Positions 550 to 63,283 of a stretch of DNA of 64,000 bases are shown in pieces. A model generated the notes under the pieces. That model saw nothing but the letters and a program-made list of their open reading frames with translations, did not search any database and was not told the DNA's origin. The translations under genes were made by a program, and so were the position numbers. Numbering within the stretch: the first letter of the stretch is position 1; each line of letters starts with the position of its first letter. The DNA comes from Candidatus Woesebacteria bacterium. GTDB taxonomy: Bacteria; Patescibacteriota; Microgenomatia; UBA8517. Where the stretch lies: contig DMZH01000003.1 of the NCBI GenBank assembly GCA_003484955.1, positions 47,815-111,814 on the forward strand, written 5' to 3'.

Positions 550-1455
550 ATGCAAAAGGGTCCTGTTACACCAAAAGGGTTTGGCGATATTATGCCCGCC
601 GAGGCCAAGAAAAGGCGTTTTATGATAAACGCTATTGCCCCTATTCTCGAAAAATACGGTTTTGAACCGCTTGAAACCCCAATCGTTGAGTTTGCAGATA
701 CGCTTCTGGGAAAATACGGCGAAGACGAAAAATTGATCTATAAATTTGAAGACAAAGGTGGAAGAGAACTTGCCTTAAGATACGACCTGACTGTTCCCCT
801 AGCCCGTTTTGTTGCCAATAATCTTGGTCTTCTCAAACCCACTTTTTCCCGGTACCAAGTAGGACAAGTTTTTAGAGGAGAAAATCCTCAAAAGGGCCGC
901 AAGCGAGAGTTTACCCAGTTCGACCTCGATTCTGTGGGGTCAAGTGACGTTTCTGAAGATGTAAGAGTAATTTCCGCAACAATCGAGGGGTCGCGTGCCA
1001 TCGGACTAACCGATGCCATTTTACAAATAAATGACCGTGAACTTTTTGACAAAATTGGCTTTTCCAAAGAAGGAATCAGGTCAATTGATAAGATCGATAA
1101 AATCGGGCGTGATCAGGTTGTCACACTTTTAAAAGAAATTAATTTAGACGAGGCCGAAAAGATGTTTGCCGATCTGGAAAAATCCGGCAAGACAGAAAGA
1201 CTAACCAAAATTTTTGAAGAACTTAAAATTAATGGATTCAAAGAAAATGTTGATTTTGTTTTTAACCCGTTTCTCGCCCGGGGCCTGGATTACTACACCT
1301 CAACAATTTTTGAGCTTAAGCTTGACAAAACACCAGGAGGACTTTCCGTTGGTGGCGGCGGAAGATATGACAACTTGATTGGAATGTTTGCCGGCCGCAC
1401 TATTCCTGCGGTTGGTTTTTCATTCGGAATTGATAGAATAATTGATCTTATATAA
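550..1455 (+). CDS. hisS: Histidyl-tRNA synthetase, catalytic core only (class II aaRS); no anticodon-binding domain
   Basis: HisRS motifs LRYDLTVPLARF and GGGRYDNLIGMF and AVGFSFGIDRI; the protein stops right after motif 3 at 301 aa. Confidence 0.75.
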   Translation: MQKGPVTPKGFGDIMPAEAKKRRFMINAIAPILEKYGFEPLETPIVEFADTLLGKYGEDEKLIYKFEDKGGRELALRYDLTVPLARFVANNLGLLKPTFSRYQVGQVFRGENPQKGRKREFTQFDLDSVGSSDVSEDVRVISATIEGSRAIGLTDAILQINDRELFDKIGFSKEGIRSIDKIDKIGRDQVVTLLKEINLDEAEKMFADLEKSGKTERLTKIFEELKINGFKENVDFVFNPFLARGLDYYTSTIFELKLDKTPGGLSVGGGGRYDNLIGMFAGRTIPAVGFSFGIDRIIDLI

Positions 1456-1460
1456 CTAGT

Positions 1461-2372
1461 ATGAGCCCTGCCCGAAAACGCGCCTATATAGAACTTCTTA
1501 TTGTGGCCGTGATTTGGGGAAGCGCCAGTCCTATCATTAAGTATACCCTGGGCGGTTTTTCCCCAGCCATATTTTTGGTCTACAGATTTTTTATTTCGGC
1601 AATCGTTGCCTTTGTCATTTTTGCATTTACCGGCATAAAATTTCCCAAAAAACCTAAGGTTCTTGCGGTAACCCTTTTAAACGGGTTTTTACTCTCAACT
1701 GTCGCGCTTGGACTTTTATTCCTGGGCACTGATAAGACCACCTCAATTGATTCTAATTTGATTTCCGCCATATCCCCCATTGTTATTGCCGTTGCCGGGG
1801 TTTTCTTCCTGAAAGAACATATCACCAAAAGAGAAAGTATCGGAATTCTGATTGCACTCACAGGAACTCTTATTACTATAGTCGAACCCATCCTTAAGTT
1901 TAATAACGGCTTCGGTGGGCTCGAAGGTAACCTCCTAGTTTTAGCCTCTGTGATAGTTGGTGCCATAACCGCAATACTTGCCAAAATACTTCTCAGGAAC
2001 AATGTTGATGCCATTTTTGCGACAAATATATCTTTTATTATCGGATTTGTGACAATGTTGCCGTTTACCCTTCCCCAGATTCTAAATTCCAGATTCCAAA
2101 TTCTTACTTCGGTTCCCTTTTCCTACCATCTCGGAGTTTTCTATATGGCACTTTTATCCGGAACTCTGGCTTATTTTCTCTGGCACAAAGCCGAAAAGAC
2201 AATTGAAGTCGGAGAGGTCAATCTTATCGCTTACCTCTACCCTCTTTTCGGTGCGCCGTTGTCAGTTTTCTGGCTGGGAGAAAAAATCGGCACGCCTTTT
2301 GTTATCGGGGGTATTTTAATAGCGGCTGGGGTTACCCTTGCCCAAATAAAGAAAAAAAGGTATAATTCCTAA
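1461..2372 (+). CDS. EamA/DMT-family transporter
   Basis: About 10 predicted TM helices in two EamA-like halves. Confidence 0.6.
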   Translation: MSPARKRAYIELLIVAVIWGSASPIIKYTLGGFSPAIFLVYRFFISAIVAFVIFAFTGIKFPKKPKVLAVTLLNGFLLSTVALGLLFLGTDKTTSIDSNLISAISPIVIAVAGVFFLKEHITKRESIGILIALTGTLITIVEPILKFNNGFGGLEGNLLVLASVIVGAITAILAKILLRNNVDAIFATNISFIIGFVTMLPFTLPQILNSRFQILTSVPFSYHLGVFYMALLSGTLAYFLWHKAEKTIEVGEVNLIAYLYPLFGAPLSVFWLGEKIGTPFVIGGILIAAGVTLAQIKKKRYNS

Positions 2373-2687: not shown

Positions 2688-3401
2688 TTGGGTAGTATGA
2701 ATAATAATCAACTCCAGGTAGTCTATTTAGAAATCAGGGGTGCCACCGGCGGTGATGAGGCTAAGCTTTGGGGTCAGGACCTACTTCGAATGTATATCCG
2801 CTTTGCCGGGAAAGTTGGCTGGAAAGTATACTCCGTATCCGACAATACTATAAAAATTTCAGGGTTTGGAGCTTTTGACAGTCTCAAAAACGAATCCGGT
2901 GTGCACCGTGTGCAAAGAGTACCTGTAACCGAAAAAAGAGGTAGAATCCACACATCCACTGCCACAGTGGTTGTACTTCCCGAAATTAAAGAAACCGAAA
3001 TTCAGATAAACCCCAATGACCTGGAATGGAGCTTTACCACAGGCGGAGGCCACGGAGGCCAAAACGTAAATAAAGTTTCGACAGCAGTGAGACTTGTCCA
3101 TAAACCTACCGGTACCGTCGCAGAAGCCCGCGAGGAGAGGTTCCAAGAGCAAAACCGCCAAATAGCGCTTTCTCTACTCAGATCCCGTCTTTGGGAGCGC
3201 CAGGAAGCCGAGAAAATGCGCACCGTTGCCGGCTATCGCTCAGTTATAGGCCGTGGAATGAGGTCAGAAAAAATACGCACTTACAATTTTCCCCAGGACA
3301 GACTCACTGACCACAGAATCGGTAAAAATTGGGGCAAACTTGAAGCTATTATGGACGGTGAATTGGAAAAAGTCGTAGAACTAACCCGAAATATTCAATA
3401 A
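2688..3401 (+). CDS. prfA: Class I peptide chain release factor, RF1-type, lacking the N-terminal domain 1
   Basis: PVT tripeptide (RVQRVPVTE) and GGQ (GGGHGGQNVNK). It aligns to E. coli RF1 from about residue 115 onward and is only 237 aa. Confidence 0.8.
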   Translation: MGSMNNNQLQVVYLEIRGATGGDEAKLWGQDLLRMYIRFAGKVGWKVYSVSDNTIKISGFGAFDSLKNESGVHRVQRVPVTEKRGRIHTSTATVVVLPEIKETEIQINPNDLEWSFTTGGGHGGQNVNKVSTAVRLVHKPTGTVAEAREERFQEQNRQIALSLLRSRLWERQEAEKMRTVAGYRSVIGRGMRSEKIRTYNFPQDRLTDHRIGKNWGKLEAIMDGELEKVVELTRNIQ

Positions 3402-27941: not shown

Positions 27942-28394
27942 CTACTTTCCTAATTCTACACGAAAAACCCGGCCCAAGCGAACGTTTTCCCCTGTCCTGG
28001 CAATAAGTTCCTTAATTAAATCCGAAACTTTTTTGCCGGAGTCTTTTACGAAATCCTGTTTTTCCAGATTAGCTTCTCCCATTGAGGCAACCTGCATAGC
28101 AAGGTCTTTTCCTAATGCTTCAAAAAGCTCATTTCTGGCGACAAAGTCAGTTTCGCAAAGAAGTTCCACTATACCAACAACTTTTCCTGTGTGGTGTGTG
28201 TAAACAAAAACCTTTCCCTCGGAAGTATTTCTTCCCTCACGCTTCGAGGCTTTTTCAAACCCTTCTTTTTTAAGAACCTCTAGTGCCTTTTTTTTGTCCC
28301 CGCCAACCTCTTCCAAAACTTCACGGATCCGAATTATGGCAACCCCCGTTTCTTCTCTGAGTTTTTTAATAAGTTCAATATCTATTTTGGCCAT
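27942..28394 (-). CDS. tsf: Elongation factor Ts (short form)
   Basis: UBA-like N-terminus LIKKLREETGVAI, about 150 aa. Confidence 0.85.
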   Translation of the reverse strand: MAKIDIELIKKLREETGVAIIRIREVLEEVGGDKKKALEVLKKEGFEKASKREGRNTSEGKVFVYTHHTGKVVGIVELLCETDFVARNELFEALGKDLAMQVASMGEANLEKQDFVKDSGKKVSDLIKELIARTGENVRLGRVFRVELGK

Positions 28395-46316: not shown

Positions 46317-46388
46317 GCCGGCGTAACTCAGTGGTAGAGTAGCTGTTTTGTAAACAGCAAGTCAGAGGTTCGAATCCTCTCGTCGGCT
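46317..46388 (+). tRNA. tRNA-Thr (anticodon TGT)
   Basis: Cloverleaf folded by hand: acceptor gccggcg/cgtcggc, anticodon loop tttgtaa, TPsiC GGTTCGAATCC. Confidence 0.8.
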
Positions 46389-46392
46389 CAGC

Positions 46393-46477
46393 GCTGAGGT
46401 GGCGGAGCGGTCAAACGCACGAGACTGTAAATCTCGCGTCCGAAAGGGCTACTCAGGTTCGAATCCTGACCTCAGCA
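46393..46477 (+). tRNA. tRNA-Tyr (anticodon GTA), long variable arm
   Basis: Acceptor gctgagg/cctcagc, anticodon loop ctgtaaa, long extra arm, TPsiC GGTTCGAATCC. Confidence 0.75.
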
Positions 46478-46489
46478 CTTGTTTTATTT

Positions 46490-46549
46490 GCCTGGGTAGC
46501 TCAGTGGTAAGAAAATCTTGCCACTTTCTCTACCCAGGTTCGGTGACTC
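46490..46549 (+). other. Duplicated 5' fragment of tRNA-Thr(GGT) (20 nt identical) that continues into a 9-bp hairpin
   Basis: gcCTGGGTAGctcagtggtaagaaaatcttgccactttctCTACCCAGGttcggtgactc; the first 20 nt equal the start of the downstream tRNA. Confidence 0.7.
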
Positions 46550-46621
46550 GCCTGGGTAGCTCAGTGGTAGAGCACGTACTTGGTAAGTACGGGGTCGTGA
46601 GTTCAATCCTCACCTCAGGCT
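46550..46621 (+). tRNA. tRNA-Thr (anticodon GGT)
   Basis: Acceptor gcctggg/ctcaggc (one G-U pair), anticodon loop ttggtaa, TPsiC GAGTTCAATCC. Confidence 0.8.
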
Positions 46622-47947: not shown

Positions 47948-48018
47948 AGGGGCGTAGTTAAACGGCAGAACAGCGGTCTCCAAAACCGTTAATGGGGGTT
48001 CAATTCCCTCCGCCCCTG
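47948..48018 (+). tRNA. tRNA-Trp (anticodon CCA)
   Basis: Acceptor aggggcg/cgcccct, anticodon loop ctccaaa, TPsiC GGTTCAATTCC. Confidence 0.75.
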
Positions 48019-57822: not shown

Positions 57823-58245
57823 ATGGCAAAAAAGATCAAAACAGTAGTTAAAATCAATCTTAAGGCGGCTGAGGCTACCCCTGCTCCTCCCGTAGGAACA
57901 GCTCTTGGGCAGCACGGAGTTGCCATCATGGATTTTGTCAAACAGTACAACGACAAAACAAAAGACATGAAGGGACAAGTTGTCCCCGCGGTCATCACTA
58001 TTTACGAAGACAGATCATTCGATTTTACAATCAAGAAAGCCCCTGTTTCCGACATGATTAAAAAGGCTTTGGGAATTGAAAAAGGAAGCGGTAAAACCCC
58101 GAGAGAGCCAGCAGGAACCATAACTCACGAGCAGGTCAAAAAGATTGCTGAGGAAAAATTGGTTGATTTAAACACAACTGATGTTGAAGCAGCAGCCAGA
58201 ATTGTTGAAGGAACAGCAAGAAGTATGGGAGTAAAAGTAGAGTAA
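57823..58245 (+). CDS. rplK: Ribosomal protein L11
   Basis: KINLKAAEATPAPPVGTALGQHGV, PPVGPALG-like motif. Confidence 0.9.
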   Translation: MAKKIKTVVKINLKAAEATPAPPVGTALGQHGVAIMDFVKQYNDKTKDMKGQVVPAVITIYEDRSFDFTIKKAPVSDMIKKALGIEKGSGKTPREPAGTITHEQVKKIAEEKLVDLNTTDVEAAARIVEGTARSMGVKVE

Positions 58246-60547: not shown

Positions 60548-61444
60548 TTAATTAGCCAAATAATCGACTATTTTAGATGCAACATTAATTCCTGTTGATT
60601 CCTCAAATCCTTCAAATTGACAGGCTCTATTTACTTCAAGCACAACCCACTTACCTTCTTCGTTTTTCATAAGATCTATACCACAATAATCCAATTTGAA
60701 AAGTTTTGAAGTTTCTAAAGCAATACTGTTCGCCTCTAAATCTTCTCCGATTTTATATGATTCGACCTTACCTCCTTGCGAATAATTACTCAAAAAGTTC
60801 CCGGGTAGGGCAATTCGTTTCATCGCCCCAACTATTTTTCCATTCAAAACAATAACACGCAAATCTTCAGCTTTGGGTAAAAGTCTTTGGAAAAGAAGGG
60901 TTTTAATTTTAAAGTTCGAATTAAATGTTTTAAAAAGTTTAAGAAGGTCGGAGTCTTCTGATATTTTGAAAACCCCAATTCCACTACTTCCGATAATGTC
61001 CTTAGCGATATACGGATACGCGTCTACACTCCATTTTTTGAGTTCTTCAATTGATGTAAAACTAAAACTCTCGACAACCGGAATGCCTGCCAGGGCTAAA
61101 TTAATATATTGAGTGGTTTTATCTAATGAAGGCCATTTACTAAATGATTTTTCATTTAATAATTTTGATCCTTTTAATTTAGACCACACAATAATCGCAG
61201 TCCGGATTGGATTATATACACTATCCTCCCCCAACCCCCGCAAAAAAATCCCATGAGGGACAGGCATTTCTTCACCTTTTAATTTGAGTTCGAATTCCCC
61301 TGTTGTATAAACAATGTTTATGTCGTTGTATTTAATCACCCGAAGATTGATGTTCTTATTTTTTGCTTCCTCGATCAACCTTTTTGGGGCATAAGCTTTC
61401 GGGCCGTGGGTAAATAGAATAATATCCAAATCAAATTTTTTCAT
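60548..61444 (-). CDS. RimK-like ATP-grasp ligase
   Basis: VVLEVNRACQFEGFEESTG C-terminal RimK-type motif; ATP-grasp fold length. Confidence 0.65.
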   Translation of the reverse strand: MKKFDLDIILFTHGPKAYAPKRLIEEAKNKNINLRVIKYNDINIVYTTGEFELKLKGEEMPVPHGIFLRGLGEDSVYNPIRTAIIVWSKLKGSKLLNEKSFSKWPSLDKTTQYINLALAGIPVVESFSFTSIEELKKWSVDAYPYIAKDIIGSSGIGVFKISEDSDLLKLFKTFNSNFKIKTLLFQRLLPKAEDLRVIVLNGKIVGAMKRIALPGNFLSNYSQGGKVESYKIGEDLEANSIALETSKLFKLDYCGIDLMKNEEGKWVVLEVNRACQFEGFEESTGINVASKIVDYLAN

Positions 61445-61458
61445 AACTCGCCATTATA

Positions 61459-62400
61459 TTATATTTTTGACGAAAAATTTTGGACAAGTGCATTCAAAAA
61501 ATTATCTCTATTTTTCATCTCCCACTTTGGAAAACCTATCTGATCATTTATCTCAAATATTTTGGGATTGCCATCTTTGTCTATACCAAAATCGAGACTG
61601 AATATCGGGTTGTCGTATTCTTTGTAAAAAATTTTGGAAATTATTTTAACTATTTTCTTAACAGATTCCGGAACCTTGGAATAATCAACCTCCGTTAAAC
61701 TACCTCCCTGAGCAGCATTGGCTAAAAGTGATCCTTCGGCGGGAACTCTTACGTGACACCAAACAGCCTTTCCATTAACTACAACTATTCTTAAATCATG
61801 TCTTCCCGAAGTTATATTAGGAACTCCATTTGAAGTATCAATAAATTCCTGAAGTATGTATTTTTTTCCTTCTTTTTCCGGACTAAAATTTTTCAAATCC
61901 TCTTTTAACCCTATAAAAATCCCCTTGCCACGAAGACCGTCATATGGTTTTAAAACGACATTGTCAGTTGTTATTTTGCTAACTAGTTTAGCAGCGTTTT
62001 TTAAATTTCCTACCCAATACGTTTTGGGCATATAACTCGATAACTTAAGATATGTTTCCCATTTATTACAGGTCAATTCCTTAAACTTTCTGATATTTAC
62101 AACTTTTAGGCTTTTCTCATTTTTGGGTGGGAATAACAAATTTCCTACCCAATCAAAAACTAAATCTAGTCTAACCGTTTCTTCTACTCTCACAAATTTT
62201 CCATTTTTAAATAACCATGCACCATCAAAACCGTTGCCTCCCTTGTACGTTTTTCTGGTAAGAATATATACTTTCCAACCCTCGGCCTGGCATAATTCTA
62301 ATAGCCGAAGATAAACCGGTAATTTCTTCCCGATGTGGCTTAGTGGAGCAACCCCTTCAAAACTTCTGGAAAAACACATTCCAAATCTAATCATTGACAT
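61459..62400 (-). CDS. YheC/YheD-like ATP-grasp ligase
   Basis: VVLKPYDGLRGKGIFI, DLRIVVVNGKAV, LANAAQGG, IFEINDQIGF. Confidence 0.65.
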   Translation of the reverse strand: MSMIRFGMCFSRSFEGVAPLSHIGKKLPVYLRLLELCQAEGWKVYILTRKTYKGGNGFDGAWLFKNGKFVRVEETVRLDLVFDWVGNLLFPPKNEKSLKVVNIRKFKELTCNKWETYLKLSSYMPKTYWVGNLKNAAKLVSKITTDNVVLKPYDGLRGKGIFIGLKEDLKNFSPEKEGKKYILQEFIDTSNGVPNITSGRHDLRIVVVNGKAVWCHVRVPAEGSLLANAAQGGSLTEVDYSKVPESVKKIVKIISKIFYKEYDNPIFSLDFGIDKDGNPKIFEINDQIGFPKWEMKNRDNFLNALVQNFSSKI

Positions 62401-63283
62401 TTTCCTTATTTAAAAATTTGGAAACCTCATCAATTTCCGGACTAACGGTTTTATCGTAATTAAATCCTGGCCCCCTATTAACTTCGAGAACAAAAACTTT
62501 TCCTGTTCCTTTTTCAATTGCGATATCAACTCCACCTATTTGAATATTTAAACTTTTTACCGCACTGACCGCGATTTTCTGGATTTCGCGACTTATAGAG
62601 CTAACATCCAGATATTCTTCATTCTGATTTAGATTGGAATAATTTAATTTTAGTGAACTGTAATCTCTTGGAACTTTTGTGTGAACAACTTTTACCGCGT
62701 CTCCCAAAACCAAGAACCTGTATTCACTTTCTAATGGGATATATTTTTGAAAAAGATATTTTGCGGTTCTTTGCTTTTCTCCAATTTTTTTGGGTAACTG
62801 GTCAAACTGTTTCTTATTAGAAATGGAGTAAATTCCGGTCATATGTTGACCAACCAACTCTTTGGCAATGATCGGAAAACCCATTTTGTTAATAATATAG
62901 TCTTCATATCTCTTTATACTTTCGCCCATACAAAAAATTGTTTGCGGCACAGGAATTCCAGCAATCGATAACTTTAAATATGATGTTAGTTTATCCCCCG
63001 AAGCTCCAATTTCACTAAAACTTCTATCAAAATAGGTAATTCCCAATTTATCAAGACATCGGGCAAGACTTCCTGCTAAGGAAAAATGAGAATGGTCTGC
63101 CCTACGGATGTAAACCAATTTATATTCGGTTACATCAATTCCTTTTACAAGAATTTTTATATTCTGCCCATCAACATTGAACATAAGATCTGTGAAACAT
63201 GCAACCTGCGCATTTGCTTCGTTACCAAGAAATTTGACCTTAGGACCAATTTTATCAACAAGAATTAATATTTTTTTCATCAT
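62387..63283 (-). CDS. RimK-like ATP-grasp ligase
   Basis: FPIIAKELVGQHMTGIY, RFLVLGDAV, VFVLEVNRGPGF. Confidence 0.65.
   Translation of the reverse strand: MMKKILILVDKIGPKVKFLGNEANAQVACFTDLMFNVDGQNIKILVKGIDVTEYKLVYIRRADHSHFSLAGSLARCLDKLGITYFDRSFSEIGASGDKLTSYLKLSIAGIPVPQTIFCMGESIKRYEDYIINKMGFPIIAKELVGQHMTGIYSISNKKQFDQLPKKIGEKQRTAKYLFQKYIPLESEYRFLVLGDAVKVVHTKVPRDYSSLKLNYSNLNQNEEYLDVSSISREIQKIAVSAVKSLNIQIGGVDIAIEKGTGKVFVLEVNRGPGFNYDKTVSPEIDEVSKFLNKENVND

Follow-up and report, generated by a model that had tools for sequence, protein, structure and literature searches.

In the 64-kb stretch of DNA analysed here (the window; G+C content 39.6%), which matches metagenome-assembled genomes from Microgenomates/Woesebacteria, members of the CPR (Patescibacteria), the open reading frame at 2688..3401 (+) is a genuine prfA gene whose product, release factor 1 (RF1), lacks the entire N-terminal domain 1. 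Comparison with related sequences indicates that this domain-1-less RF1 is clade-wide in Microgenomates and under strong purifying selection. Our best explanation, with a probability of about 85%, is that the protein is a housekeeping RF1 in which domains 2 and 4, the codon-reading superdomain, are joined only by the GGQ domain 3. We found no paper on release factor truncation in CPR/Patescibacteria in open-access full text, and as far as we have found, a natural, repeated, and graded loss of domain 1 in a major bacterial radiation is undescribed; the biochemical possibility is already known from E. coli truncations.

Boundaries and domain content of the window RF1

The maximal prfA ORF (2688..3401, +) has a TTG start and a TAA stop and encodes 237 amino acids. 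ATG 2697 is the prfA start used by the gene callers, and the resulting 234-aa product is identical to the public protein P0001. In orthologues, the first ATG is located 7–15 residues ahead of the YLEIRGATGGDEA strand of domain 2. Based on the gene calls and the position of the first ATG in orthologues, we place prfA, coding for RF1 domains 2–4 only, at 2697..3401 (+), with ATG 2697 as the likely start codon. The 237-aa ORF described in an earlier note on this DNA is thus present, but its start is moved to ATG 2697 and its product is shortened to 234 aa.

The upstream in-frame stop of the prfA ORF is the TAA of rpmE, which encodes the 101-aa ribosomal protein L31 (2376..2681, +; Pfam PF01197, E = 9e-27, residues 1–63). 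The rpmE gene ends 6 nt before the prfA ORF and in the same frame, leaving at most two further codons open, and because of this stop no domain 1 can be encoded at the prfA locus. Only 7–13 residues precede domain 2. The earlier claim that prfA lies directly after rpmE, with no room for domain 1, therefore holds, the ORF being bounded by the rpmE stop at 2681. Beyond its Pfam domain, L31 carries a charged C-terminal extension of ~38 aa. A promoter-like site (TTGCCC-17-TATAAT; 2338..2366, +), with 10 of 12 matches in a consensus scan, is located just 5' of rpmE and may, tentatively, drive an rpmE-prfA transcript; no terminator-like site was found between the two genes. Besides rpmE, the neighbour of prfA in the window is a gene for an HtrA-like protease.

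RF1 profiles and the RF1 sequences of Thermotoga maritima and E. coli match the protein only from the beginning of domain 2 onward, in agreement with the earlier note. The Pfam PCRF model is matched at positions 99–194 of 194 only, the GGQ domain model RF-1 (PF00472) at positions 2–116 of 116 (E = 3e-33), and NCBIfam prfA at positions 108–344 of 361. Overall, the matches to the NCBIfam prfA models start at position 100–108 and run to the end, and the ~110-residue domain 1 is absent, as had been proposed. The prfA scores of 285 and 299 bits are below the cutoffs of TIGR00019 (423) and NF001859 (400), a shortfall consistent with the missing ~110 residues, which amount to one third of the protein. 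The comparison with RF1 and RF2 profiles suggested in the earlier note gave 285 bits for prfA and 184 bits for prfB, with domains 2–4 only matched; prfH and ArfB models scored 56 and 44 bits. The best match among solved structures was T. maritima RF1 (residues 89–318, E = 7e-66), while the alignment to E. coli RF1 begins at residue 111 and spans 2721..3380 of the window in tblastn.

The codon-reading elements of RF1, that is, GG(D/E)E, the Gln before PxT, PxT itself, and His-Thr, all align with those of T. maritima and S. mutans RF1. Domain 2 starts with YLEIRGATGGDEA (2724..2762, +), aligned to the RF1 sequences of T. maritima, S. mutans, and E. coli, and this region with its GG(D/E)E element, the reader of the first stop-codon base, is nearly invariant in 50 orthologues. 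The PVT tripeptide, the RF1 'anticodon' (PxT), is encoded at 2922..2930 (+; aa 79–81 of the 237-aa ORF), and PxT is kept in 64 of 64 loci, with a varying middle residue. The GGQ motif, which catalyses peptidyl-tRNA hydrolysis, is found at 3054..3062 (+; aa 123–125), is kept in all loci, and is invariant in an alignment of 21 close relatives (alignment A1). Both motifs had been recognized in the earlier note. The switch-loop and the EKIRTYNFPQ segment, which link domains 3 and 4 (3240..3296, +), align to SQIGTGERSEKIRTYNFPQ of T. maritima RF1 and are conserved in the orthologues. The domain 2 hairpin, WKVYSVSDNTIKISG (2820..2864, +), shows gaps relative to solved RF1 structures and is ~10 residues short compared with other RF1s; the missing residues presumably correspond to the SASEGEHGGYKE segment of E. 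coli RF1.

Compared with canonical RF1 (T. maritima 1RQ0, T. thermophilus, and E. coli), the window protein thus shares domains 2, 3, and 4 at ~45–55% identity, together with the GG(D/E)E, Gln, PxT, His-Thr, GGQ, and switch-loop elements. It differs from them by having no domain 1, by the shorter hairpin, and by the sequence ERFQEQNR in domain 3 (3135..3158, +); in other bacteria, the corresponding segment of RF1 and RF2 reads ERSQxxNK. The replacement of Ser by Phe in this segment is invariant in alignment A1, and ERFQeQNR is conserved in the 50 orthologues. Three lineage-specific tryptophans (W25, W111, and W166, 234-aa numbering) are likewise invariant in A1. An AlphaFold model, for which the underlying alignment was shallow and the confidence moderate (mean pLDDT 65), had the free, compact RF1 1rq0 as its nearest structure, with a TM-score on the query of 0.74 over 241 alignment columns (319-residue target).

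Conservation and selection

The RF1 product is 100% identical on GCA_000996165.1, on several JGI contigs from groundwater and sediment, and on a 750-kb ENA contig, and the identical P0001 is found on 32 contigs. In a protein database comprising 5.8 billion clusters, each of the best 120 matches listed is 224–244 aa long. A scan for orthologues using one genome per GTDB species gave 60 loci. Domain-1-less RF1 was encoded in 50 species-level genomes, labelled Woesebacteria, Shapirobacteria, or Microgenomates, or mislabelled; these proteins are 66–99% identical to the window protein, and their N-termini are located 7–30 residues before domain 2. In the same 50 loci, the RF1 alignment starts 0–132 nt after the L31 stop. 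The L31 gene is located directly 5' of prfA in 62 of the 64 fetched loci, including those with full-length RF1, and the canonical RF1 of other CPR is thus encoded after rpmE in the same way. Against the closer orthologues, dN/dS (Nei-Gojobori) was 0.03–0.05, synonymous sites being saturated in the rest. With domains 2–4 only, the motifs kept, a clade-wide distribution, and evidence of purifying selection, the description of the protein as a naturally minimised RF1 in the earlier note is well founded.

Many records of metagenome-assembled genomes titled 'uncultured Gammaproteobacteria bacterium' (TPA, CAZ/CAY prefixes) carry a prfA 70–98% identical to the Woesebacteria gene. The rpmE-prfA order is kept in these loci (L005, L006, L014, L017, L019, and many more), and the titles look taxonomically wrong.

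A graded series of domain 1 lengths across CPR

The length of the region ahead of domain 2 varies among CPR. In Parcubacteria-type loci (L055, L056, L060, and L063), 108–112 residues precede domain 2 and can be aligned along E. coli domain 1. The two Amesbacteria sequences (L051 and L052) have 73–74 residues, and various other CPR (L054, L058, and L062, and the proteins P0122, P0127, P0130, and P0133) have 52–82 residues, while the 50 Woesebacteria-type loci of Microgenomates have 7–30. The partial forms align to the C-terminal part of domain 1 only, approximately residues 50–112 of the E. coli protein, and the aligned part includes a conserved 'DPE..A..E' segment.

In a neighbour-joining tree of domains 2–4, which included an Amesbacteria sequence, the 50 domain-1-less sequences form one clade, sister to L052. 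A second domain-1-less pair, L057 and L059, with 21–24 residues before domain 2, is placed elsewhere among the partial forms. Because this pair stands apart from the 50-sequence clade, domain 1 seems, on the basis of the tree, to have been lost completely at least twice. The genes of the pair (L057 2384-3154 and L059 3830-4597; labelled Saccharibacteria and Spechtbacterales) encode a domain 2 hairpin of normal length.

The spacing from RMY to HRVQR, which covers the hairpin, is 39 aa in all Microgenomates loci versus 49–50 aa in the other CPR loci. The short hairpin is found in all Microgenomates sequences, including those of Amesbacteria with a partial domain 1, but not in L057 or L059. This distribution makes it a mark of the lineage; domain 1 can be lost without it. 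In two RF1-like cluster representatives, P0123 (477 aa) and P0125 (481 aa), the query was matched in two separate stretches; these proteins may be RF1 with a large insertion, or fusions.

Domain 1 was probably deleted in place, from the stretch that separates rpmE and domain 2, and the deletion would have become fixed in an ancestor of the Woesebacteria/Shapirobacteria branch of Microgenomates. The loss in Microgenomates appears to complete a shortening that proceeded stepwise across CPR, and the evolutionary steps would have followed in that order.

Alternative explanations

The source of the window is a metagenome assembly and the ORF starts just 6 nt past the preceding gene, and one could thus suspect an assembly fault, a gene called too short, or a pseudogene. 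However, the rpmE-prfA junction is the same in four independent assemblies derived from different samples (JGI, NCBI, and ENA), the architecture is common to 50 species, and the dN/dS values of 0.03–0.05 argue against a decaying gene, so that an artefact or gene in decay has a next to negligible probability. An assembly error, considered unlikely in the earlier note, is excluded by the four assemblies together with the 50 species-level genomes. It is also conceivable that the gene is split and that domain 1 is supplied by a separate gene and associates in trans. The region examined comprises 64 kb and flanks of a ~750-kb genome, and a helical bundle as poorly conserved as domain 1 is easily missed. 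Nevertheless, no displaced domain 1 was found in the 64-kb window, either by tblastn with E. coli RF1, which matched 2721..3380 only, or with a domain 1 profile made from 11 sequences (CPR and E. coli, with the domain complete or partial), for which the best of 1085 six-frame segments gave E = 0.87. Moreover, domain 1 has been shortened progressively at the same locus in related lineages, which is a pattern of loss and not of fission, and we regard a split gene as very improbable. A read-through fusion, in which L31 with its charged tail would act as a substitute N-terminal module of RF1, would fit the single reading frame of rpmE and prfA, which are separated by the TAA and two codons (2376 and 2688 are each divisible by 3), and the helical C-terminal extension of L31, ~38 aa past the Pfam domain. 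Against this, the distances from the rpmE stop to RF1 in orthologues (0, 1, 6, 14, 19, 25, 36, and 87 nt, and others) show no apparent frame relationship, the L31 extension has no match to the domain 1 profile, its length shows no relation to that of RF1 from locus to locus, and TAA is the strongest stop codon; such a fusion is extremely improbable. The L31 extension was also considered as a relic of domain 1, and rejected for its lack of similarity to the domain 1 profile.

The protein could further be a specialised rescue or repair paralogue of the PrfH or ArfB kind, with a normal prfA located elsewhere in the genome. ArfB, ICT1, and C12orf65 belong to the same superfamily and are likewise minimised, with the GGQ domain kept. 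ArfB-type factors have no codon-reading domains 2 and 4 and sense the empty mRNA channel by a C-terminal tail, whereas in the window protein the codon-reading module (domains 2 and 4) is complete. The ArfB model NF006718 aligned to just 36 residues and gave 43.8 bits, its cutoff being 100. PrfH (RF-H) comes closer, as it also combines a codon-recognition-type domain with GGQ and has no domain 1 according to PMC1586002 and PMC6514570, and the prfA score of 285 bits is below the NCBIfam cutoff of 423. PrfH is, however, an rtcB-linked factor of ribosome repair or rescue with divergent decoding motifs (PMC1586002 for the motifs), while the window protein has the canonical PxT and the other RF1 decoding residues. 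The prfH model TIGR03072 matched the GGQ domain only and gave 56 bits (cutoff 166.65), and 285 bits for prfA stand against 56 for prfH and 44 for ArfB. No RtcB gene was detected in the 10 kb flanking prfA on each side, whose neighbours are those named above, and the gene occupies the same position after rpmE as the full-length RF1 of other CPR genomes. A second release factor gene was found neither in the window, by tblastn with the window protein and E. coli RF1, nor within 10 kb on either side of prfA in the 64 loci. We therefore consider a specialised paralogue quite improbable. In the passages of a survey of release factor diversity that deal with forms without the N-terminal domain, PrfH and ArfB are given as such forms and CPR RF1 is not mentioned (PMC6514570).

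Proposed mode of termination without domain 1

A housekeeping RF1 made up of domains 2–4 would bind the ribosomal A site at UAA or UAG and read the codon by its GG(D/E)E, Gln, PVT, and His-Thr elements. It would then open and bring GGQ into the peptidyl-transferase centre, whereby the finished protein would be released. By analogy with canonical RF1, UAA/UAG specificity and peptide release are expected to be the same. Lacking domain 1, the factor would form no bridge to the L11 stalk and would not be engaged by RF3, so that its exit from the ribosome would have to rely on spontaneous subunit rotation, followed by recycling by RRF and EF-G. Independence of RF3 is thus predicted from the missing interaction domain.

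Cryo-EM has shown an L11-RF1-RF3 bridge formed by domain 1 (PMC3677378), and termination can be completed by RF1 and RF2 without RF3, via spontaneous subunit rotation (PMC6742477). When domain 1 is removed from E. coli RF1, codon specificity and peptide release are preserved in vitro and the factor works in vivo, but it fails to stimulate RF3 (Mora et al. 2003, as related in PMC1586002). These engineered E. coli RF1 and RF2 variants have the same architecture of domains 2–4 as the window protein, but they were made in the laboratory and placed in an RF3-bearing cell, which grew slowly (Mora et al. 2003, via PMC1586002), whereas the window RF1 is natural, fixed in its clade, and under strong purifying selection. 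Thermus and Thermotoga have no RF3 (PMC6742477), yet their RF1 structures retain domain 1. Domain 1 must therefore have other roles, and as loss of RF3 is insufficient to explain loss of domain 1, a complete deletion is informative. To our knowledge, all class I release factors examined by biochemistry or structure have domain 1, those of bacteria without RF3 included. A part kept by all studied bacteria thus appears to be dispensable in nature.

The clade-wide deletion, with intermediates in sister lineages, is evidence from evolution that domains 2–4 suffice for reading stop codons and releasing the peptide. It also offers a comparative system for the contribution of domain 1 and its L11 contact, e.g., to binding speed, accuracy, or factor recycling, and a compact natural RF1 of 231–234 aa for reconstituted or engineered translation systems. 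In public annotation, relatives of the protein appear as 'release factor 1', 'release factor-like', or 'PCRF domain-containing'. Since prfA scores are below the curated cutoffs, pipelines assign the label 'release factor-like', and surveys of completeness or pathways could wrongly score RF1 as missing.

Requirement for RF1 and the surrounding translation genes

In a greedy set of ~78 window ORFs, 45 end with TAA, 18 with TGA, and 15 with TAG. Public gene calls made with the standard code give normal lengths for genes ending with TGA, e.g., RecR and MreB, and all three stop codons are therefore in use. UAG is read by RF1 only, while UGA requires RF2 activity. As TAG ends ~19% of the window genes, RF1 is in routine use, and RF1 activity is needed in the source genome.

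The ribosomal partner of domain 1 is intact. The rplK gene (57823..58245, +) encodes a full-length L11 (tblastn with E. coli L11, residues 1–141, 50% identity) that scores 185.8 bits with NCBIfam L11_bact (cutoff 141.85) and has the proline-rich PAPPVGTALGQ segment. With L11 unchanged, the stalk shows no visible co-adaptation. RRF in the window is also full length.

A prmC (HemK-like) gene is located directly after or near prfA in L055 (10807-11799), L063 (10765-11622), L058 (19362-20123), and L062 (8889-9683), all of which encode RF1 with all or part of domain 1. Neither the sequence within 10 kb of each domain-1-less prfA in the 64-locus set nor the 64-kb window yielded a prmC-like ORF. Searches by tblastn for SecA, LysS, and SmpB, as possible neighbours of prfB, gave one SmpB only, in a Parcubacteria-type locus. 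It is a speculative and, in our judgement, rather doubtful extension of the housekeeping reading that termination as a whole has been pared down, with both class I factors lacking domain 1, no RF3, possibly no PrmC, and ribosome exit purely by spontaneous rotation. If this were true, the CPR series would constitute a natural deletion series showing which parts of domain 1 go, and in what order.

Two other proteins of the translation apparatus encoded in the window are shortened. EF-Ts (27942..28394, −) has 150 aa and matches positions 1–145 of 293 of the tsf profile with 97.7 bits (cutoff 104); its C-terminal half is missing, which makes it a second shortened translation factor in the same genome. 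Histidyl-tRNA synthetase (550..1455, +; 301 aa) matches hisS positions 2–312 of 406 with 292 bits, above the cutoff, and appears to lack the C-terminal anticodon-binding domain; the next gene encodes an EamA transporter. A half-length EF-Ts and a histidyl-tRNA synthetase without the anticodon-binding domain suggest a lineage-wide shedding of domains in the translation apparatus.

Four tRNA genes (46317..46621 and 47948..48018, +), three of them tightly clustered, are the sole Rfam matches in the window. Past the rplK-rplA-rplJ-rplL cluster, there are three adjacent ORFs of the RimK/ATP-grasp type (60548..63283, −). One of these (61459..62400) is recorded on very few contigs, unlike the core genes, and the region may be strain-variable.
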